In this document: positions 3,422-49,992 of the stretch, in pieces | Layout of the letters: each line of letters starts with the position of its first letter | Position numbering within the stretch: the stretch's first letter is position 1 | Assembly: GCA_000004985.1 (NCBI GenBank) | Contig: GG738888.1 | Origin: Naegleria gruberi | Lineage: Eukaryota | Direction: 5' to 3' (one strand) | Length of the DNA stretch: 64,000 nucleotides | The notes under the pieces: model-generated | What the model was told of the DNA's origin: nothing | Databases searched by the model: none | What the model saw: only the letters and a program-made list of their open reading frames with translations | Program-made: the position numbers and the translations under genes

Positions 3422-4183
3422 ATGACTTTTTCTCACTTCATCTCCACCTTTGCGTTGTCCTTCATCTCACCCTACATTGTCTATTTTTCCAAACAATCAT
3501 CATCAAAAGGTGAAAAGGAAAATTCATCGATCGGAACGGAAAGAAGATTTAGTAATGTCGTGTTGGGAATTATGGCTTTTGGCTTGACCATGTTCTGTAA
3601 AATGTTTTTGATTGCCATTGTTATTAGAGGAAATGAAAATCAACAATTACAAAGTGGTGCCATTAATTTTGATGATAACAAACAAATTGCAACATTAGGC
3701 TTTGGCTTCTTTATTACAGAAATTTTAAAAACCTTGATAGGATCATTGGATTTAATCGGAATGTTCTTTATTCTTTCTTCTAAATGGTTATTAGGTGACC
3801 AAACTTCTCAATTATATGGATGTGCTATTGGATGGACTATGGGTGATAATTTATTCAACAGATTACTTCCATTGTGGTTCAGTACTCGTGGATTACAATT
3901 TGAACTTAAATCTCTTCAAATGGGTGTTTATAGTAATATTGTAATGCTTGAATGGATTGCTGTGGCAACATTTGTCTTTCTCTATTCAAAGAAAAAGTTT
4001 GAACAAAAGAACTATGTCAGAACCATGTTAATTATTCTCACAGTTTTCCCATTCGTTTTTGAAATTGTCAAGGTTCTTATTGGAGTGCAATGTGTTTGGT
4101 GTTTGATGGGAATTAAGGCATGTTTCTATGGAGTTTTCTGTTTATTAGCAAACTCTACCTTGTCTCAATACGAAAAGGAGTAA
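3422..4183 (+). CDS. TMEM147: TMEM147-like multi-pass ER membrane protein
   Basis: The N-terminus MTFSHFISTFALSFISPYIVYF and the internal stretch IGWTMGDNLFNRLLPLWFSTRGLQFELKSLQMGVYSNI closely parallel TMEM147 ([21 protein letters not shown] ... [38 protein letters not shown]). The length is about 250 aa with multiple TM helices. Confidence 0.6.
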   Translation: MTFSHFISTFALSFISPYIVYFSKQSSSKGEKENSSIGTERRFSNVVLGIMAFGLTMFCKMFLIAIVIRGNENQQLQSGAINFDDNKQIATLGFGFFITEILKTLIGSLDLIGMFFILSSKWLLGDQTSQLYGCAIGWTMGDNLFNRLLPLWFSTRGLQFELKSLQMGVYSNIVMLEWIAVATFVFLYSKKKFEQKNYVRTMLIILTVFPFVFEIVKVLIGVQCVWCLMGIKACFYGVFCLLANSTLSQYEKE

Positions 4184-6655: not shown

Positions 6656-6836
6656 AAAATCTTTTTTGGTATTTTTTATATAATATTAACATATTAAATG
6701 GAAGAAAATTAACCTTCCCTATATGAAATCTCTTCTCAATATATTTGACTTGTTCCCAATTTAGACAATTTAAAATTTTTCTTTTAAAATTGAAAATTTG
6801 CAATTTTTAAAATTTTTTGAAAAACCGCTTAAAAAA

Positions 6837-6979
6837 ATGTTGAGAGGAAGTTTGCGTAGCGTTGCCGCTATCAGAAGAGGAGCATCAATGATTTCAAATA
6901 GGAATAATATTCGTATGATTTCATCTAGTTGTATGGCTAATAACGGGCTGAGTGCATTCAATGCTGTTGCTAGTCAAAG
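6837..6979 (+). CDS. Putative first exon of an unresolved multi-exon gene; N-terminal mitochondrial-presequence-like peptide
   Basis: ATG at 6837 encodes MLRGSLRSVAAIRRGAS (Arg/Ser-rich, amphipathic). The exon ends at AG|GTAGGA. Possible short exons follow downstream (6837-7600) but are not resolved. Confidence 0.2.
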
Positions 6980-7851
6980 GTAGGAATTTTTTGATGTTTT
7001 TTATTAATTCGTGATGATGTTGATGAATATTGTTGTTCTATATTGTTGTTATTGTTTTTGTATTAATATTATATATGAATATTATTTAATGATGAAATAG
7101 TACTTCCGGTAATAGAAATAACTTTTGTGTTAAAGTGGTGAATCCAAGTGGAGTGTTTGCTCAAGGTTATATTACTTTTGGAAATACAGATGATGATGGT
7201 TAGTATGGTTAGTAGAGATTAATTCGATTAATAATTCTTAATTATTCAAAATAGATGGATAGGTGTGTATTATTTAAATTTAATGGAATTTACTAACATG
7301 TTGTTGCTTCCGATAATATCTAATAGTAGAAACTTGATAATCCTTTTTGTTTTGGAGAATTTAGGTGTTTGACAAAAACTATGTATGTCTCAAATATTCA
7401 ATATGCGTGTTTGCTCATATATTTCATTCTGTATTCAGAATTCCCAAGTGTGAATATTTAACTTTTCCCAATATATTTGTTGTTGGATATATTTAAAAAA
7501 AACTAAGATTAAAAATTGAAACATTATATATTCTTCTCCATCATCTTTTCATCCACACTTCTCTATCAATAATTTCACAAAGGAACGTAAAGATAAATTT
7601 TGTTATTGAAATTCAATAATTAAATTGATAAAAAATGCCAGCATCAAGTAAGTTGATGAAAACACAACGATTTGTGTGATGACCATTAAAAATTGATGAT
7701 TATTTGAATGTTTATAAATTGGCGTCGGATTTAAAAAGAAAAGAAAATTAAACAAAAGTTAAAGCAAAAGGAAAAGAAACAAGGAGAAACATCGACTGAA
7801 ATTGATGTCGATCGTCACGTTCCTCAAAATGCTAATGATTTTCAACAAGCT

Positions 7852-8130
7852 TTGGATTCTATTGCCAATCAATTGGATTCAATGAGCTCTCTTGGAACTC
7901 ATCTTGATGACGATGATGATGATAACGTTAGCTGTGTGACAAGTCAATTGTCTAAAAAGAAGGGTATCACAAAACCACAATCCAAGAAACAAAAATCAAA
8001 ACAAAAGAAGAATTTGGAAAAAGCTCTTTCATATCAAGATCGTTTGGAAACAACTGAAGTTAAAACTATTCATGATAAAATAAGGAAATTGCCAGAAGAA
8101 AAACAAAGAAGACACAATAAGAAGAAATAA
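7852..8130 (+). CDS. Lys-rich small hypothetical protein (possible upstream micro-exon MPASS at 7634 with a GTAAGT donor)
   Basis: 92-aa ORF with an acidic stretch followed by a K-rich tail. The region contains ATGCCAGCATCAAG|GTAAGT at 7634-7653. Confidence 0.3.
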   Translation: MDSIANQLDSMSSLGTHLDDDDDDNVSCVTSQLSKKKGITKPQSKKQKSKQKKNLEKALSYQDRLETTEVKTIHDKIRKLPEEKQRRHNKKK

Positions 8131-22450: not shown

Positions 22451-22531
22451 GTTGAGGTGGCCGAGTGGTTAAGGCGCCAGCCTGCTAAGTTGGTGGAGAA
22501 ATCCGCGTGGGTTCGAATCCCATCCTCAACG
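22451..22531 (+). tRNA. tRNA-Ser(GCT): tRNA-Ser (anticodon GCT), type II with long variable arm
   Basis: The acceptor GTTGAGG pairs with CCTCAAC. D-arm GCC-GAGTGGTTAAG-GGC. Anticodon stem CCAGC/GTTGG with loop CTGCTAA. T-arm GTGGG-TTCGAAT-CCCAT. Discriminator G. A T6 run follows at 22532-22537. Confidence 0.9.
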
Positions 22532-22752: not shown

Positions 22753-24589
22753 ATGGATATTTTCTGTGTGTGTATAGCAGAATTTGATTTACTCAAAGGA
22801 AACACACTTTCACATGTGTATCCACCCGAACGAAGAACTATCCTAAACACTTTCACATCTCATTTGGGAGATTATTGTCTTCCGGATGGTGCTCACTATT
22901 TTGAAGAGGATGCTACCTATCTGGTAATTCCTTCAAATGTTGTGAGTTCTTCTCTGTATAGTTATTTGAAATCGGGTGCTTCTTCTAACAATGTTTCTAG
23001 TGTTTCGAATAGTGAGAATAGTTCAGTTGTTAATAATACACAACAAGTAATGGAATTTATTGAACCCTATGTGGATAAACCAATGTATGCTCATTGTTTA
23101 TTTAGAAATAAGAAGGATGAACGTGTCAAGAGAGGCGCCATTCAAAAGTCAATTATTTTATTTTCATCAAAACCATTATTTACTGTTTATGAGAATTTAT
23201 TGAGATTGGCATTGAATAGAATTTTGGATTTGGATAATATTCACTTACAGGTTAATGCTACAGCTACTAAGAAACAACCAGGTGAAGAATTAAACGAAAC
23301 GGATTTAAATCTTTTGAATCAAGTTCATGATCAGATTAATGATACTTTGAAAGAGTTTTATAACGAGTGCAGAAATTGTAACATGTTACAATTGAAATTA
23401 TTCCCAAATACTGATACTATTACTTTGAATATTCCACGTCAGATTGATCCATTCACACCAATTGCATTTACACATGGAACTTCTCTTGTACAATTAGTTC
23501 AATATTTTGGATTGGAAACAATGCTTGTTTGTTGGAATGCTCTATTATTGGATAAGAGAATTATGGTAATTGGTTCACCTGCCAAGTTGGTTTCACAGAT
23601 CTGTCTCACTCTTCCTCTCTTGATTTATCCATTCCAATATAATGTCAATCGTGTACATCCATATGTGCCACTCTCAGAGATGGATGATGTGTTATCTGCA
23701 ACTTCTAAAATTCCAGAATATATCATTGGTACGACGAATGCTCTCTTTGAAACTCAAGGAAAAAATCAGAGAACTCAATGGTGGGATGTTTGTTTGAGTG
23801 TCAATTCTAGAAAAGTTCAACTTGCTGAAAAGATGCCACCTCATTTCGGTGGCTCTGATTTGGCATTCCTCAATACAAATGATAGCGAAGACGTTCAAAT
23901 TGAAAAGCTCAATGCCTATCAGAAAGTATTCATGTTAAATGTCATTAGTGGAGTGAGAGATGGAAAGAGTGAACAATGGGTTCGTGATCAGTTCAAAACT
24001 CACAATCTCAAGTTTATTACCGAATTATTGACAAAGGGAAAGCTTACTGATATAGTTGAGAATGTTCCGTCTGATGTAGGTGTCGATCCACAAAAACAAC
24101 AAGTGGCTTTGAAGAATATTTCAGGAGGTCAATTGAAAAAGATTCAAAGACAGTTCATTGCTGAATCCTCCAAGTTTAGAACCTATGCTTTCAAACAATA
24201 TTCAACATTTAGAAGTTCACACTGTAGTGGAGATAAGAGTGATGACAAACAATCGGAATCTGTTCTCCAATTATTGCAATATTTACAGGTCGATAGGATT
24301 ATCAAGAAGCAAAAGCTTAAATACTTGTTTGATTTGGATAAGATGTTGTGTAATGTTGATCAAATTGACTTGTTATTGTCAGTTAGTGATAATTCAAGTA
24401 TTTTTACAACTATTAAGAATAACAAGTGGTTAATTGATGATAATAATCAGTGGAGAAAGTACAGTGCCAGTATTTTATCCCAATTGGCAATTAGTGTTAA
24501 AGGTCAAATTCAATTATTGTCTCTTCTTCCATCTATCAAACTCTTGACCGAAGATTCAATGCCAAATGTCAAGAGAATTGGTTATTACT
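22753..24589 (+). CDS. DENN-domain protein (AVL9/DENND6-like), 3'-truncated by assembly gap
   Basis: Core DENN signature LVCWNALLLDKRIMVIGSPAKLVSQICLTLPLLIYPFQYNVNRVHPYVPLSEMDDVLSATSKIPEYIIGTTNALF. The uDENN-like N-terminus is IFCVCIAEFDLLKGNTLSHVYPPE. The ORF runs into N's at 24590. Confidence 0.6.
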
Positions 24590-25984
24590 NNNNNNNNNNN
24601 NNNNNNNNNNNNNNNNNNNNNNNNNNNNNNNNNNNNNNNNNNNNNNNNNNNNNNNNNNNNNNNNNNNNNNNNNNNNNNNNNNNNNNNNNNNNNNNNNNNN
24701 NNNNNNNNNNNNNNNNNNNNNNNNNNNNNNNNNNNNNNNNNNNNNNNNNNNNNNNNNNNNNNNNNNNNNNNNNNNNNNNNNNNNNNNNNNNNNNNNNNNN
24801 NNNNNNNNNNNNNNNNNNNNNNNNNNNNNNNNNNNNNNNNNNNNNNNNNNNNNNNNNNNNNNNNNNNNNNNNNNNNNNNNNNNNNNNNNNNNNNNNNNNN
24901 NNNNNNNNNNNNNNNNNNNNNNNNNNNNNNNNNNNNNNNNNNNNNNNNNNNNNNNNNNNNNNNNNNNNNNNNNNNNNNNNNNNNNNNNNNNNNNNNNNNN
25001 NNNNNNNNNNNNNNNNNNNNNNNNNNNNNNNNNNNNNNNNNNNNNNNNNNNNNNNNNNNNNNNNNNNNNNNNNNNNNNNNNNNNNNNNNNNNNNNNNNNN
25101 NNNNNNNNNNNNNNNNNNNNNNNNNNNNNNNNNNNNNNNNNNNNNNNNNNNNNNNNNNNNNNNNNNNNNNNNNNNNNNNNNNNNNNNNNNNNNNNNNNNN
25201 NNNNNNNNNNNNNNNNNNNNNNNNNNNNNNNNNNNNNNNNNNNNNNNNNNNNNNNNNNNNNNNNNNNNNNNNNNNNNNNNNNNNNNNNNNNNNNNNNNNN
25301 NNNNNNNNNNNNNNNNNNNNNNNNNNNNNNNNNNNNNNNNNNNNNNNNNNNNNNNNNNNNNNNNNNNNNNNNNNNNNNNNNNNNNNNNNNNNNNNNNNNN
25401 NNNNNNNNNNNNNNNNNNNNNNNNNNNNNNNNNNNNNNNNNNNNNNNNNNNNNNNNNNNNNNNNNNNNNNNNNNNNNNNNNNNNNNNNNNNNNNNNNNNN
25501 NNNNNNNNNNNNNNNNNNNNNNNNNNNNNNNNNNNNNNNNNNNNNNNNNNNNNNNNNNNNNNNNNNNNNNNNNNNNNNNNNNNNNNNNNNNNNNNNNNNN
25601 NNNNNNNNNNNNNNNNNNNNNNNNNNNNNNNNNNNNNNNNNNNNNNNNNNNNNNNNNNNNNNNNNNNNNNNNNNNNNNNNNNNNNNNNNNNNNNNNNNNN
25701 NNNNNNNNNNNNNNNNNNNNNNNNNNNNNNNNNNNNNNNNNNNNNNNNNNNNNNNNNNNNNNNNNNNNNNNNNNNNNNNNNNNNNNNNNNNNNNNNNNNN
25801 NNNNNNNNNNNNNNNNNNNNNNNNNNNNNNNNNNNNNNNNNNNNNNNNNNNNNNNNNNNNNNNNNNNNNNNNNNNNNNNNNNNNNNNNNNNNNNNNNNNN
25901 NNNNNNNNNNNNNNNNNNNNNNNNNNNNNNNNNNNNNNNNNNNNNNNNNNNNNNNNNNNNNNNNNNNNNNNNNNNNNNNNNNNN
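24590..25984. other. Assembly gap (1395 N)
   Basis: Contiguous run of n. ORFs composed of X across it are artefacts. Confidence 1.
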
Positions 25985-26454
25985 TGACAATCTGTTATTT
26001 GTGTGGAATTTGATCGCATGTCAGTAGCATTAGAATTACTTAGAGGAAAGTGGACGAAATGGCAATAATCTGATGGCGTGATTGTTGACGCATGCATGTC
26101 ATTTTCCATTTGCTGATTTTTCGCTTTGTTCAATTCTTCCAAAATCGAATATTCACTATCAACATGCATATTAGGATTACTGACATGTGTCTCGACATGC
26201 ATCTTGACAGGTAAGCTCATTACACTAGCTAAACTATCCTTCTTAGATAAAACTCTAAATTGTGATGTTGGCTCTTGATGTTTCTCCACATGAAATACGA
26301 AATAATTATCCAAAAATCTTTCGTTTAATAAAGTCTTTCTTAAACGTTGAGTTTTCAGTTTGTTTTCACGTTTGGCTATTCGCATGGAAGTTCTCAATGT
26401 TTCGTCTATGAAGGAAACATCTCTTTGATTGAGTTTCGAATAAGGTTGTGGCAT
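25985..26454 (-). CDS. Divergent, longer member of the DET-KT-NRI / LFLLQLCCAL small-protein family (5' part only; 3' end lost in gap)
   Basis: The N-terminus, SFIDETLRTSMRIAKRENKLKTQRLRKTLLNERFLDNYFVFHVEKHQEPTSQFRVL, shares the family core motif with the downstream tandem copies. Confidence 0.5.
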
Positions 26455-34858: not shown

Positions 34859-35269
34859 TTATCCGTCTTCTTCAATGTGATGGAGAAATAGTAATTTTAG
34901 GAGAGCTTTTCGTTGTTCGTTGTNNNNNNNNNNNNNNNNNNNNNNNNNNNNNNNNNNNNNNNNNNNNNNNNNNATTGAAACTCTTCTGTTTCTTAAAGTT
35001 TCGGATGATTTAGTTGCGACTGCATGCTGTTGATCCTGTCCATCGGCAGCTTGGTGTTGCTTAAGATGATATTGGTTCATTATTTTTGGTTGTTGATTGG
35101 TTTCGGCAAGATTACACTGGAAAGTTTGCATGGTTTCGGATTGTTGTGTTGGTGAAGGAAGTCGAAAGTGAACTTCATTTCTCTGAATCCCACTTTGAGG
35201 GTCTAAATTATTGTCTTCCAGACATGCACTAGAATCTAATGAGAAACTAGACGAAAGTTCATCATCCAT
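34859..35269 (-). CDS. Gln-rich hypothetical protein interrupted by a 50-N gap
   Basis: The ORF spans the N-run at 34924..34973. The C-terminus, KALLKLLFLHH, weakly resembles the family Leu-rich tail. The model is unreliable. Confidence 0.25.
   Translation of the reverse strand: MDDELSSSFSLDSSACLEDNNLDPQSGIQRNEVHFRLPSPTQQSETMQTFQCNLAETNQQPKIMNQYHLKQHQAADGQDQQHAVATKSSETLRNRRVSXXXXXXXXXXXXXXXXXXNEQRKALLKLLFLHHIEEDG
34924..34973. other. Assembly gap (50 N)
   Basis: Run of n. Confidence 1.
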
Positions 35270-38526: not shown

Positions 38527-38607
38527 TGCAGAAGGTGGGATTTGAACCCACGAAGCTTGCGCAGTAGAACTTGAGTCTACCCCCTTTGACCACTCGGGAA
38601 CCCCTGC
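38527..38607 (-). tRNA. tRNA-Leu(CAA): tRNA-Leu (anticodon CAA), type II, no intron
   Basis: Minus strand: GCAGGGG-TT-CCC-GAGTGGTCAAA-GGG-G-GTAGA-CTCAAGT-TCTAC-(variable arm)-GTGGG-TTCAAAT-CCCAC-CTTCTGC-A. Acceptor, anticodon and T stems all pair. A T5 run lies 2 nt downstream at 38520-38524. Confidence 0.9.
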
Positions 38608-42930: not shown

Positions 42931-43001
42931 TCGGGTGTGGTATAGTGGTAGCATTCCAGACTGTCACTCTGGCGACCCGGGTTCAATTCCCGGCACTCGA
43001 G
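42931..43001 (+). tRNA. tRNA-Asp(GTC): tRNA-Asp (anticodon GTC)
   Basis: TCGGGTG-TG-GTATAGTGGTAGCAT-T-CCAGA-CTGTCAC-TCTGG-CGAC-CCGGG-TTCAATT-CCCGG-CACTCGA-G. Nearly collinear with metazoan tRNA-Asp. A T5 run lies at 43008-43012. Confidence 0.9.
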
Positions 43002-44375: not shown

Positions 44376-46527
44376 TTAATGGTAAACATCACGAATGGAT
44401 TTAATTCTTATATTGGAAATGAATTGATCCAAATTTTGAATTCTTAATTGATGATTTAAAGTGGAGAAGCGAATAGTTTCTGATCTTTCTTTCAACATCA
44501 TTAGTCCATTCCTGTCAAATCTTCCTGAATTTCCATCATTTTCTAACCAAACATAAAAGGCAACTTGATCTGAAATCAAATCAAATTGAACCACTGTTCC
44601 ATCCTCCAATAATTTTGCATTGATAATTTTAAAGTTTGTTTTTGGCAAATCAGTGACAAGTGCCAATGGTGAGAGGAAGTGAACATTTTCAGAGATAATC
44701 TCATTAGTAGAATAGTCGGTCAAGGACATGTGGACAAAGCAACGATTCGAAAGGAAGCACAAACTTTCTAGGATGAGCATTTCACTTTCCTTTGCAAAAA
44801 TCATTTGTCCAGAGAGTGGTTGAATGGAAAGGTTTGGGAAATTCAAAGTCTTTTTGATTTCACCATTCGAATATTGAATTATTTTCACAGTGACTGATGC
44901 TGTCAATTGTTTCATTCGATCAGTGGTGACAAAAATCTTAAACCATCCTCCCTGTTCGTAGGATAACACAAGACTCTCTGAGAAGAAATCCTTAACAAAG
45001 TAATGCATCATCTTCCATTTTAATCCATATTCCAAAGACGCCCAGTCCACAGTTTGCCAAATCGAATTCAATTGCCAATATAGGGCTCCATATGTTTGAA
45101 CATTTGGATCATCCCTTAGAGATCTGTAATATTCAGTTTGAGCTTTCATGCAGAGAGCTTGCGAGCATTGAGACAAGTAAATGAAATTTTCAAAATTTCC
45201 ATATAAATTATCAAATTTGAAATGATTTCCTATTTGGAAGAGTATTTGATTGGTACCGTCTGGATGGTGTTGTCTATGATTCATTAGTGTGGAATTATAG
45301 AACCAATCCTGGGCCATACTCACAGATTTGAAAGTTTGTAATGAGGCAAACGATTGATGTCCATACTCAGACATGAATCTGGCTCTTGGGAAATTATCCA
45401 CGTTGGTACAAACTGTACTGTAATCATAATAGTGAACATCTCCCAATGAGGTAGAGTAAGGATTAAGCCAATATCCAACGTATGGCTCTTCAGAAATTAC
45501 TCCCTTTGAAGGGCTTGATGGCCAGAATGGTCTTGAACTATCCACTTGAAGAAGATTTCTCCTCACCGTCTCGAAATATAATGTTCCATAATCGACAATG
45601 TATCTCATCTTGTTTGTGTTTGAATTAATCACTGGCGAGTACCAAGTATCTCCCCACAGAGAGGCCTCATTCTCATTACTTCCACTCCACATGATAATTG
45701 ATGGATGGTGCATCAATCGAGTTGCTTGTTGTTGAATTTCCTTTGAAATACTTTGTAGGAATAGTTCAGTTCTTGGATAGGTAGCACATGCAAACATGAA
45801 TTCTTGCCAAACCAATATTCCCTTCTCATCACAAAAATCATAGAAGGAATCTCTTTCAAAATTTCCACCTCCCCAAATCCTCAAAGTATTTTGATTGGAT
45901 TCTATGAAGGAATCGAGTAAATTTCTCAAATCTTGGTCGCTCACTCTTTCAACAAATGAATCTGGAGGAATGTAATTGGAACCTTTGGCAAATACTGGAA
46001 TTCCATTAATTTCAAAATAGAATGATTTGCTTGGATTGTTGATTGGATCAGTTTCTTGGATTGGCTTTTGAATTATTTTCACTTGTCTGAAAGCAATTCG
46101 TTTTTGTAAAGTGTCGTGGAATGATTGACTGGTGAGTGAGGCTTTCACTTGATAGAGAGGTTGAGACCCATAGCCAACTGGATACCATAATTGAACATTT
46201 TGGCAGGGAGTTGTTAATTCGAATTGTAAAAATCCATTCGAAATTTCACATTGATTGATGTTTACGATTTGAGAATTGGAGCAAATGGAATTTGATGAGG
46301 AATCTTCAATGTTCACTGAAATTTTGATTTGTTTTGGTAAATTAATCTCTGATACTACTTGAATGATGAAAGTGGAATTGATTTTGAACGTATTCGAAAG
46401 TGTTGGAATAATTTCTGCTCCGTTTCTTTTTGGAATAATATTAGATACTGGAAATGTTTCAATTCTCAAATCTTTCAATGTTAGAGAATTATAAACTGTT
46501 ATCAACTTGACTTGTTTCCAAATTCCT
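44376..46527 (-). CDS. Beta-mannosidase (glycoside hydrolase family 2), exon 2
   Basis: GH2/beta-mannosidase blocks: [53 protein letters not shown]. The frame is open upstream to a CAATAG acceptor at 46528-46529. Confidence 0.8.
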
Positions 46528-46571
46528 CTATTGATTTTTTATAAATTAGTGAGGAAATATTCGAAACTTAC

Positions 46572-47218
46572 ATTGGAGCAAAACAAGGACCCCAATCCCA
46601 TGAAAACGAAGATTGTGTCTTTCTTATAAAGTTTCTATTCAACTCACCATGCTGAACTTGCTCATTATCACTTGTTGGAATTGGATACAGACTTTCCTTT
46701 GCTTTCCGTTTCGAATATTCAATAGCAGATTGAAATTTCACAACCAACAAATTGGATTTTTCTCTTATCAAATCAGTTACATCAATCTCAATCTTGTGAA
46801 ACATATTCTCACTACCTCCAATCCACTGTCCATTCAATTCAATATCACAAACAGTATCCAATCCATCAAATTGTAAATAAATTCGTTTCATTTCGTTCAT
46901 TTTCATGCCACTTCCCAAATCAAATTGATTTGTAAATATCCACCCCTCCAAAGCCACCCATCTCAACAGTACATCATTAAATCGATAATACGGATCAGGA
47001 ATTACACTCCGATTATAGAGAATGGTGTGGACTGTTGCTGGAATTTGAAAATTACATTCTCTGATGGTTTGATTGTTGTTTTGGAGACACCAACCTTGAG
47101 AGAGGGGTAATTCTTGGTGTTGTTGTTGTTGTATGGATGTGTGTGCAAGGCTGGTTGAGATCAAAAGAAGGAAAGAGATGAAAAAGAGTTCGTGCATTTT
47201 TTTATGAGATTTAGCCAT
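46572..47218 (-). CDS. Beta-mannosidase, exon 1 with signal peptide (44-bp intron 46528..46571)
   Basis: Signal peptide LFFISFLLLISTSLA. The exon ends ...SFSWDWGPCFAP-AT|GTAAGTTTCG (phase 2). The TAA that ends the ORF is inside the donor. The spliced read is ...CFAP-I-GIWKQV... Confidence 0.75.
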
Positions 47219-47412: not shown

Positions 47413-47485
47413 GCTGGCGTAGCTCAGTCGGTAGAGCGTTGGTCTAATAAGCCATTGGTCGCCGGTTCGATCCCGTCCGTCAGCA
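47413..47485 (+). tRNA. tRNA-Ile(AAT): tRNA-Ile (anticodon AAT)
   Basis: GCTGGCG-TA-GCTC-AGTCGGTA-GAGC-G-TTGGT-CTAATAA-GCCAT-TGGTC-GCCGG-TTCGATC-CCGTC-CGTCAGC-A. Closely parallels eukaryotic tRNA-Ile(AAU). There is one T-stem mismatch. T-runs follow at 47491-94 and 47498-47502. Confidence 0.85.
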
Positions 47486-47505: not shown

Positions 47506-48871
47506 TCAGTAATTGAAAATCTTCAAGACAGAACCATAGAAACCATAAACTTTTCTTTCCTGTGAATCAATTGCCAAACATCCACAAACTGTTCCTTCAA
47601 CATACAATATTGTCACATATTCACATGTCTTTCCATTATAAATTCTCAAATAATTGGAATCGTATTCTGCCTCAAAAATAAAATTATTCTTTGCGTCCAC
47701 ATTCACCACGTACGGCTTATCAAATTGAATTTCCACTCCACACGGAACATTCTTAATAATTTTCCCTTCTTTAGAAACAAATAAGAGTTGATTTTTTTCC
47801 TTTTCACAGACAATCAAGTGAGATTGATCTGCACTGAGGCACATGTCCGTTGGGAAGGTAATTCCAATACCAGTGATGGTTCTTGATAATTTTCCATCCT
47901 TGGAAAGTACAAGAATATCGCCATTAATAGCATCACCTACAAATATTGTACCATCTGAGTCTTGGCAAGTAACACCTTTGGCTCTTCTGATTGGATATGA
48001 CCAAATTTCTTTTCCATTCTTGGAAGAGGAGAATTTAGAAACCTTTCCCATGAATGAAATTACAAAGCTATCATCAATGCTGGAATAACACATCTTGTCT
48101 GGCATATCTCCTAGATTGGTGTGAACTTCAATCTTTCTACTTGTCAAATCCAAAGATAATAAATTTGAATTTAAAAAGTTACTAATTATCAATCTGTTGT
48201 GCTTCTTTTGTAAAACCATACCGAGAGGATTTTTAAAATCCAAATATTCATCATAATTTCCAGTTGACTCTATTTTGTCGACTTCCTCCAAAAATATCAA
48301 TGCATTTTGATCTTTGGATTCTTCAGTAGTAGCATTGGGATCATCCAAGGCAAAATCCAAATCATCCAAGTTCAAATCCAAACCGTCCAAATTCAAATCC
48401 AAACTATCCAAGTTCAAATCTAAATCTTTCAAACTCAAACAAGCAACAACCATTTCAGCCGAAATTCTGTCCTTTGGATTTCTTCTCAACATGGAATAGA
48501 CAAGGTCAATAAAATCTGTAGAGAAATTTCCTCTTTCCAAAATCTTTTTGGATATAAATTTCTTGAAATCTTCTTCATCTTGACTTGTGACAAGTGTTGC
48601 CAATGATGTGACCATATCAAAAGTAGCAAGTTGATACATGGAAACACCCAAAGCAAACATATCAGATGCAAATGAAAATGGATTGGATCCCATATTACTC
48701 ACAGAATATTCGACCAATTCTGGAGCTAAATAATTCATTGTACCCGCAATAGCAACTGATTGAGTGAAATTTTCCAAAGATTTAGCCAATCCAAAATCTC
48801 CCAAAGCAACAGTAATAATTTCATGTTCAGGATCCAAATTTCTAACCAGAATATTATGTGGTTTGATATCT
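47506..48871 (-). CDS. Ser/Thr protein kinase with C-terminal NHL-like beta-propeller, exon 2
   Basis: Starts (R)DIKPHNILV ... DFGLAK ... APE. The downstream region has repeated blades: IFVGDAINGDILVLSKDGK, LIVCEKEKNQLLFVSKEGK, YVVNVDAKNNFIFEAE. Confidence 0.75.
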
Positions 48872-48919
48872 CTATAATTCAATTAAATCAAAGATTTGAA
48901 ACATTTTGAAATTACCTAC

Positions 48920-49992
48920 CTATGAATAGTTCCATCTGTTTTCTGCATCATGTCTAAAGCACTACAAACTTGTCTGGCCACTTCTTTCATCATATTTTCA
49001 TTCAATTCCAATTTTGGTTTCACAACCGATGAGTAAAGACTTCCCTTTGACATGAGCTCCATTTCAATACAAATCTTGGACATGACTCCTGGCAAAAAGA
49101 CATCCAATGTAGAAACAATGTGTTCATGAGTCAATTTGGTCATTTTCATGGCTTCTTGGAGTGCATTATTAATATCCGAAACATTCTCAATGATCATGAT
49201 CTTCAAGGCCTTTTCCTTTCCATTCTTTCTATCGACCACTTTATAGACAGCTCCAAAAGCACCAGCATCCAATCGAATAATTTCAGAATATCTCTTTTCC
49301 AAGATGGCTTCTACTGTTTCTTGAGAGAATGTTTCATTTCTAATAACTGAATTATTGGTGGCCTTATTGGAATTATTACCAGTACTACCAGGTGATGATG
49401 ATTCTCCTCCACTCATTGATTTGAAAGAAGCAATGCTATTTGACATTTCGAATGACATTGAAGGGAAATCTGAAGATGATGAATTTGATTTGTTTGGTTG
49501 ATATTTTACATTGATTGATTTGTCCTCTGGAGCTGCCGTCTTGGAAAATAACATGAAATCTTCAACTCCTTCACTATCAAAGATGGATACTTCCGTTTTT
49601 AATTTTACATCAAAATACGAAAGTTTACACAAACTTTCTTCCAGATTCGAATCTTGGAATTTAGATTGAATAATCTTGAAAAGCTCTGTTTTAGATAATG
49701 TATCGGAAGGATTTAATCTAATATATTGACATTCTTGTGAATTATTTGATAAATTTTGTAATTTTACCAAAACTCTTATAGGATCCGAGTTGGTTGTTGG
49801 GGATATAGTTGCTGTTTTAGTATTTGGTGATGGTGATGATTCTAAAGAAATTGTATTCTTATCTTCCTTTGATCCACCTCTCAACTTTTTCAAGAAGGAT
49901 GACATTTTTTTTGATGTTGTTGAACTTTTTGAAACAGTTTTGTTACATTTATTCACTGATGCAACGAAAGGGCTCAGATCGTTATTATACAA
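48920..49992 (-). CDS. Ser/Thr protein kinase, exon 1 (48-bp intron 48872..48919)
   Basis: GAFGAVYKVVDRKNGKEKALK (Gly loop and VAIK Lys) ... LTHEHIVSTLDVF. The exon ends ...DGTIH-AG|GTAGGTAATT. The acceptor TTATAG restores H-R-D-I-K-P-H-N across the junction. Confidence 0.75.

Follow-up and report, generated by a model that had tools for sequence, protein, structure and literature searches.

Does a protein kinase joined to an NHL beta-propeller, an arrangement best known from mycobacterial PknD, betray a bacterial gene when it is found in a free-living eukaryote, or can the pairing arise there on its own? The question is raised by a locus in a 64,000-nucleotide (nt) stretch of Naegleria gruberi DNA (GenBank assembly GCA_000004985.1, contig GG738888.1), hereafter called the window. 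A first-pass annotation, made by a model that saw only the DNA and its open reading frames (ORFs), had recognized a kinase fused to NHL-like repeats and had compared it with PknD-type sensors. Here, we analyzed the 783-amino acid (aa) protein encoded at this locus, XP_002673855.1. It is likely that this protein is a soluble, cytosolic Ser/Thr kinase built from a putative PB1-like domain, a Ser/Asn-rich linker, an RD-type kinase domain, an acidic (DLNLD)n linker, and an NHL propeller, that it would work by a docking mechanism, and that it represents a fusion made within Heterolobosea and not a transfer from bacteria.

Gene model and intron

The span originally assigned to the gene, 47506–49992, marks the outer bounds of two neighboring minus-strand ORFs (358 and 458 codons), which join in frame once a 48-nt intron is removed. 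The coding sequence itself is shorter, as it begins at the first ATG at 49905 and ends with the stop codon at 47506–47508, giving a product of 783 aa. Exon 1 (48920–49905, minus strand) encodes aa 1–328 plus two bases of Arg329 and runs from the N-terminal region through the PB1-like domain and the Ser/Asn-rich linker into the kinase N-lobe, stopping at H-R. Its limits were set from the ORF and ATG positions and from the identity of the product to XP_002673855.1. Exon 2 (47506–48871, minus strand) encodes aa 329–783 and the stop; this single uninterrupted ORF comprises the kinase C-lobe and everything downstream of it, namely the acidic linker and the NHL propeller.

Two other sequences were available for comparison. 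The first is an ENA ERZ929261 contig (L001) from a near-identical strain, whose protein (P0001) shows ~98% column identity. The second is a metagenomic homolog (P0005, on contig L002 of JGI sample 3300002220), which is 39% identical by BLASTP. The homolog is collinear with the window protein from the PB1-like domain through the propeller, and its kinase domain is much more conserved than the full-length BLASTP identity. Exon 2 corresponds to the same ORF in both, so that three independent sequences carry the kinase C-lobe, linker, and propeller within a single unbroken reading frame.

The intron (48872–48919, minus strand, GT..AG) lies within the codon for Arg329 (AG|A), the arginine of the HRD motif. 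Its removal restores both the frame and the invariant catalytic-loop motif T-I-H-R|D-I-K-P-H-N. In the metagenomic homolog, precisely this codon is interrupted by a GT..AG intron of 47 nt (HR|DLKPQN). Furthermore, when the gene is aligned to the strain contig, only one indel, of 1 nt, has a length not divisible by three, and it falls in the intron; the exonic indels are all multiples of 3. Because these three lines of evidence agree, we take the intron to be real. The first-pass annotation had read it as a sign of eukaryotic origin, and the window is indeed from N. gruberi.

Outside the acidic linker, the window and the strain contig differ by 10 synonymous and 2 non-synonymous changes; in the propeller, the counts are 5 and 1. 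This synonymous excess, together with exonic indels that are exclusively in frame, indicates that the whole reading frame is under purifying selection.

The product is identical, letter for letter, to GenBank EFC41111.1 (RefSeq XP_002673855.1, UniProt D2VQ31), which is described as “protein kinase [Naegleria gruberi]” and lies on a 351,708-bp scaffold. The kinase–NHL gene is already present in public annotation. In the 90% protein cluster of P0001, the representative is a shorter, 466-aa metagenomic ORF, and the 783-aa N. gruberi protein sits beneath it. The same cluster also holds fragments of 32–56 aa, one of them named “thiamine phosphate synthase YjbQ.”

The C-terminal NHL propeller

Residues 524–783 (47509–48288, minus strand) are predicted to form a six-bladed NHL beta-propeller, as judged from an AlphaFold2 model, Foldseek, profile searches against the PDB, hhalign, and the strain comparison. 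The AlphaFold2 model, calculated from a 14-row alignment, has a predicted local distance difference test (pLDDT) score of 91.5, a predicted template modeling (pTM) score of 0.91, and 24 strands. These strands are predicted to make up six four-stranded blades in a closed propeller. Going by the strand count, the N-terminal strand (aa 524–530) probably completes the last blade as its fourth strand. The region of about 250 aa that had been read as repeats is therefore real, and it is modeled as an ordered propeller and not as a disordered or non-propeller segment. The blade motif proposed for these repeats, h-x-V-x-D-x-x-N-x-x-I-x-V (h, hydrophobic), is a good fit to blade 3 (IFVGDAINGDILVL) but only a loose fit to the remaining blades.

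Foldseek placed the NHL domains of Thin, TRIM2, TRIM71, and TRIM3 at the top (TM 0.82–0.85), with Mei-P26 also among the structural matches and TM scores of 0.80–0.85 overall. Sequence identity to these TRIM-NHL domains is just 15–18%. Seven-bladed WD40 and YVTN propellers reached a TM score of only about 0.72 (YVTN 1l0q, 0.72). The YVTN type, which had been entertained together with NHL, is thus the poorer fit, and a seven-bladed WD40 or YVTN propeller was rejected on the 24 strands and the lower TM scores.

A profile made from only two sequences, the propellers of XP_002673855.1 and P0005, was searched against the PDB and retrieved solved NHL domains: Pizza6 (E value 5.8e-16), TRIM3 (2.1e-11), Brat (2.2e-9), PknD (1rwi, 5.7e-9), Thin (6.7e-9), TRIM2 (8e-8), and TRIM71 (1.2e-6). 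Aligned by hhalign to four canonical NHL propellers, the propeller profile gave 97.9% probability and an E value of 5e-13. The NHL assignment of the first-pass annotation, for which a profile comparison of the C-terminal 260 aa had been proposed as the check, is borne out by these searches, with PDB profile E values from 6e-16 to 1e-6.

With the propeller sequence alone, phmmer gave weak matches to Thin-NHL, Pizza, and PknD among solved structures. An exhaustive phmmer search of 1.84 billion representatives yielded 324 proteins at E ≤ 1e-3. Sixteen of these were scanned with Pfam, and 14 were NHL-positive, including all eight with a long single-stretch alignment. The two negatives were P0005, the kinase-fused homolog itself, and P0100, a PQQ/ACSF4-type propeller. 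A word-indexed homolog search returned the strain variant and one weak NHL match only. We regard the evidence for the NHL identity of the C-terminal domain as solid.

The kinase domain

The Ser/Thr kinase domain, of RD type, spans aa 205–478 (48424–49293, minus strand, intron included) and was delimited by Pfam Pkinase, motif positions, solved relatives, and a neighbor-joining tree. The Pkinase match covers aa 212–471 at 153.3 bits (gathering cut-off 31.7, E value 1.1e-44). The catalytic residues are all there, namely K235 (ALK), E251, HRD 328–330, K332, N335, DFG 354–356, APE 378–380, and R464. The activation loop (aa 354–380) includes T366, S368, and T374. We infer from the intact catalytic residues that the kinase is active and of the RD type, in keeping with the canonical Ser/Thr kinase called earlier. 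The motifs listed in that call were found for K, HRD, DFG, and APE, but GxGxxG is inexact: the glycine loop reads D213-A-G-A-F-G218, with Asp replacing the first Gly. The loop of the metagenomic homolog (D-S-G-G-F-G) likewise lacks the first Gly.

The best solved relative of the kinase is CAMK2, at an E value of only 2e-19, and others include Rad53, CDPK, STK10/SLK, ULK1, HPK1, MEK1, and RAF. By sequence comparison, the domain fits no recognizable kinase group.

Origin of the fusion

Heterolobosean relatives of the kinase score 106–223 bits per domain, about three times higher than bacterial PASTA and TPR kinases (58–72 bits). The nearest kinases, none of which has a propeller, come from N. 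lovaniensis (proteins carrying between one and three kinase domains), Willaertia (a TPR-kinase), and N. gruberi itself (a paralog). A kinase-domain phylogeny had been suggested as a check on the first-pass annotation. In a neighbor-joining tree computed without bootstrap, the window kinase and that of the metagenomic homolog are sisters in an all-heterolobosean clade, apart from the sampled bacterial PASTA and TPR kinases.

Over the full domain, the propeller is most closely related to NHL proteins that carry no kinase, namely N. gruberi XP_002674020.1 and XP_002669103.1 and N. lovaniensis XP_044547021.1 and XP_044552773.1. Just 3 of the 150 best propeller relatives carry one (the strain variant, P0005, and P0177, described below), and within that set the PB1-like–kinase–NHL fusion itself was seen only in the window gene, the strain variant, and the one metagenomic homolog. 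This low count agrees with the rarity of such fusions among eukaryotes that the first-pass annotation had put forward. Because the nearest relatives of each module are heterolobosean proteins without the other module, we conclude with moderate confidence that the fusion probably arose by domain shuffling within Heterolobosea and that the gene is not an ortholog of PknD.

Naegleria and Willaertia encode several other multidomain kinases, as seen among the kinase homolog matches. The closest annotated relatives of the kinase are two N. lovaniensis proteins in which domains from this family occur in tandem, three in C9374_006567 (P0003) and two in C9374_006435 (P0004). Some of these domains have catalytic motifs that appear degraded by eye (“HGDVNPTN,” “HRSIQPNK”), and the proteins look like pseudokinase–kinase arrays.

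N-terminal domain, linkers, and topology

Two parts of the protein, the N-terminal PB1-like domain and the acidic linker, were overlooked in the first-pass annotation. The model of aa 42–135 (49501–49782, minus strand) adopts a ubiquitin-like beta-grasp fold that is closest to solved PB1 domains, and we tentatively designate this region PB1-like. Within it, “YFDVKLKTEVSIFDSEGVEDF” is loosely OPCA-like by eye only, and K48 on strand 1 is a candidate basic residue. A phmmer search of the N-terminus against the PDB gave no match.

The PB1-like domain is followed by a low-complexity linker rich in Ser, Asn, and Thr (aa 136–204; 49294–49500, minus strand; 46% S+N+T), which contains an SDFPS..SF patch conserved in the alignment with the metagenomic homolog. 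The second linker, of the form (D-L-N-L-D)n, connects the kinase to the propeller (aa 479–523; 48289–48423, minus strand), and its net charge is −12. Its repeats are encoded by tandemly repeated DNA at 48340–48439, for which Tandem Repeats Finder reported a period of 21 nt and 4.1 copies. The length of the acidic linker varies by strain, with in-frame differences of 15 nt and 9 nt relative to the strain contig. The metagenomic homolog likewise carries a DLDLNLDLNLDDLDL linker between kinase and propeller.

No membrane segment was found in the 783-aa protein. The highest 19-residue Kyte–Doolittle mean is 1.41 and falls within beta-strands of folded domains. Therefore, the kinase and the propeller should lie on the same side, in the cytosol.

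Proposed mechanism and alternatives

By analogy with TRIM-NHL proteins, we propose that the NHL propeller would serve as a docking platform that recruits a partner or substrate (a protein, possibly RNA) or sets the location of the kinase. The flexible acidic tether could give the kinase reach to whatever the propeller holds. The PB1-like domain may pair front to back or self-assemble, on the pattern of MEKK2/3–MEK5 and aPKC–Par6, and such assembly would bring kinases together for trans-phosphorylation of the activation loop. A protein of this kind would have been made inside Heterolobosea by joining a lineage-specific kinase family to a lineage-resident NHL propeller.

Several observations weigh against this reading. 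At the N-terminus, the PB1-like model is of moderate confidence (pLDDT 72.7) and comes from a two-sequence alignment. Pfam gave no match for aa 1–196 even at E ≤ 10, and hence no PB1. BLASTP of the N-terminus against a similar-looking region of N. lovaniensis P0006 also gave no match, so BLAST lends no support to PB1. At the C-terminus, Pfam NHL on the sequence alone detected one repeat at 14.9 bits, below the gathering cut-off of 20 (E value 0.027). The net charge of the propeller is −4, which does not favor an RNA-binding surface in the style of Brat or LIN-41, though global charge is a poor proxy. The kinase tree, besides its want of bootstrap values, includes no PknD kinase domain. No ortholog was found in N. 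fowleri or N. lovaniensis, as judged from annotated proteins only. The suggested roles of both the propeller and the PB1-like domain are drawn by analogy from TRIM-NHL proteins and PB1 kinases. Finally, a literature search with the accessions and the eukaryotic kinase–NHL architecture returned no paper naming XP_002673855.1, and “NHL” mostly retrieves lymphoma papers.

How, then, do other explanations fare? An artifact of assembly or gene modeling, with kinase and propeller belonging to separate genes, is a general risk, and the window does have assembly gaps elsewhere. However, the kinase C-lobe, linker, and propeller share one 458-codon ORF without a stop, and the same junction in both comparison contigs refutes the artifact by three independent contiguous sequences, leaving it with practically no probability. 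It is extremely unlikely that the protein is a PknD-type sensor kinase derived from bacteria, in which NHL would be a ligand sensor acting across a membrane or through ligand-induced dimerization. The kinase-then-NHL order is that of Mycobacterium tuberculosis PknD (PMC1262709), the profile search significantly matched the sensor domain of PknD (1rwi, E value 5.7e-9), and many bacterial kinases occur among the weaker kinase matches. Yet the protein has no membrane segment, which largely refutes the topology, and a spliceosomal intron conserved in the metagenomic homolog interrupts the kinase domain. TRIM-NHL and Pizza propellers score equal to or above PknD, the kinase clusters with heterolobosean paralogs, and the propeller is nearest to Naegleria NHL proteins. 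The N-terminal PB1-like domain also speaks against such a sensor; to our knowledge, PB1 occurs only in eukaryotes.

The remaining explanations concern what the propeller does. If it were an enzyme, such as a gluconolactonase (SGL), a PON/arylesterase, or a strictosidine-synthase-like hydrolase, the protein would be a bifunctional kinase–hydrolase. Pfam searches of the C-terminal 255 aa do give sub-threshold matches to SGL, Lactonase, Str_synth, and Vgb_lyase at about the level of NHL, with YNCE as another. However, these fall below curated cut-offs and are the usual cross-matches of the six-bladed clan, also given by bona fide NHL proteins, and it is non-enzymatic NHL domains that rank first both by structure and by profile. 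We consider an enzymatic propeller very unlikely. An intramolecular regulator has somewhat more to recommend it: by docking on the kinase, or on the acidic linker acting as a pseudo-ligand, the propeller might keep the kinase switched off pending the arrival of a partner. The acidic tether, being long and flexible, would permit such back-folding, and RD-type kinases usually require regulated activation. The variation in linker length between strains argues against a precise pseudo-ligand, and on balance we find autoinhibition doubtful. We also think it unlikely, though worth stating, that the protein is a cytosolic counterpart of PknD assembled independently in Heterolobosea, with a propeller that senses a ligand inside the cell or binds one particular RNA or protein, and a PB1-like domain that polymerizes the kinase into an assembly for signaling. 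The combined PB1–kinase–NHL module was not found described as a signaling architecture in our literature search. We therefore retain the docking kinase of heterolobosean origin as the likely reading.

Genomic surroundings

The window is nuclear DNA of N. gruberi, as shown by the exact matches of the kinase–NHL gene and of both its neighbors to proteins from this species, and has a G+C content of ~34%. Runs of N at 24590–25984 and 34924–34973 mark assembly gaps, and the former accounts for the apparent 10% G+C in the 24001–26000 bin. A tRNA-Ile gene (anticodon AAT; 47413–47485, plus strand) is convergent with the kinase gene and ends 20 nt from its stop codon, an arrangement that is the same in the strain contig. 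Other tRNA genes lie between protein genes: Ser-GCT (22451–22531, plus strand), Leu-CAA (38527–38607, minus strand), and Asp-GTC (42931–43001, plus strand). Beyond tRNA, an Rfam scan of the window found no family at threshold.

On the far side of tRNA-Ile is a GH2 beta-mannosidase gene (44376–47218, minus strand; 925 aa in two exons), an exact match to XP_002673854.1. Its ORFs at 44376–46505 and 46568–47218 imply a short intron near 46506–46567. The protein is 63–64% identical to its N. fowleri and N. lovaniensis orthologs, which calibrates the divergence within the genus.

Upstream, the divergent neighbor XP_002673779.1 (50184–52562, plus strand; exact match) starts 278 bp from the kinase ATG and is an EGF-repeat membrane protein. 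By eye, it has a signal-peptide-like hydrophobic N-terminus and one hydrophobic stretch before a coiled-looking tail. Its N-terminal part also looks NHL/teneurin-like by eye, but Pfam at E ≤ 0.001 gives EGF_2 only. No paralog of the kinase–NHL gene was found elsewhere in the window. An operon-like link to the neighbors was rejected, as this is a eukaryotic locus and the neighboring genes are unrelated.

Significance and comparison with known systems

The kinase-plus-NHL pairing familiar from PknD also arose, on the reading we favor, inside a free-living eukaryote, with a different topology in which all parts would be cytosolic and a PB1-like assembly domain is added. The PB1-like–kinase–NHL architecture is a lineage-specific variant in a genome with many multidomain kinases, and it provides a compact and clear-cut case of convergent domain shuffling within the large kinome of Naegleria. 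The practical value lies in improved annotation, since the GenBank, RefSeq, and UniProt records name only “protein kinase,” and the NHL propeller and the PB1-like fold can now be added. The protein is also a candidate for studying NHL propeller binding outside animals. It is a modest curiosity, which neither opens nor settles a long-standing question.

M. tuberculosis PknD resembles XP_002673855.1 in placing a six-bladed NHL propeller after an N-terminal Ser/Thr kinase of the Hanks type, and the two propellers are homologous by the 1rwi profile match given above. In PknD, a membrane helix lies between the kinase and the extracellular NHL sensor (PMC1262709). In contrast, the Naegleria protein is without a membrane span, its linker is acidic and of low complexity, and its propeller is predicted to be cytosolic. 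It also differs in its N-terminal PB1-like domain, its spliceosomal intron, and its heterolobosean-family kinase. The comparison with PknD made in the first-pass annotation is therefore sound for domain content but does not extend to the layout, and the origin of the Naegleria gene looks independent of PknD.

TRIM-NHL proteins (Brat, Thin/TRIM32, TRIM2, TRIM3, TRIM71/LIN-41, and Mei-P26) share a cytosolic, C-terminal, six-bladed NHL propeller and supply the best structural matches. Several of them bind RNA through a basic top face. Use of the propeller as a docking surface is a TRIM-NHL feature that is carried over here by analogy. The effector differs, being a RING/B-box/coiled-coil E3 ligase in TRIM-NHL proteins and a kinase in Naegleria. 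As for the PB1-domain kinases (MEKK2/MEKK3, MEK5, and aPKC iota/zeta), none has a propeller, and unlike them the Naegleria kinase belongs to no recognizable STE or AGC group, with its PB1 identity coming from a moderate-confidence model only.

A further protein, P0177 (1098 aa, Logan assembly SRR30399214), which looks soluble, likewise unites NHL propellers with a kinase. However, the order is reversed, as its two NHL propellers precede the kinase, which is TKL-like, is distant from the window kinase (42 bits), and falls outside the heterolobosean clade. P0177 looks eukaryotic and is evidently an independent fusion. Its ORF occupies positions 3441–6737 of contig L003, the next ORF (6796–8103) is also NHL-positive, and the hydrophobic C-terminal tail of P0177 suggests an unrecognized intron. 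The nearest relatives of the propeller and of the kinase are the Naegleria NHL-only proteins and the heterolobosean kinase paralogs such as C9374_006567, respectively, each of which has a single type of module.

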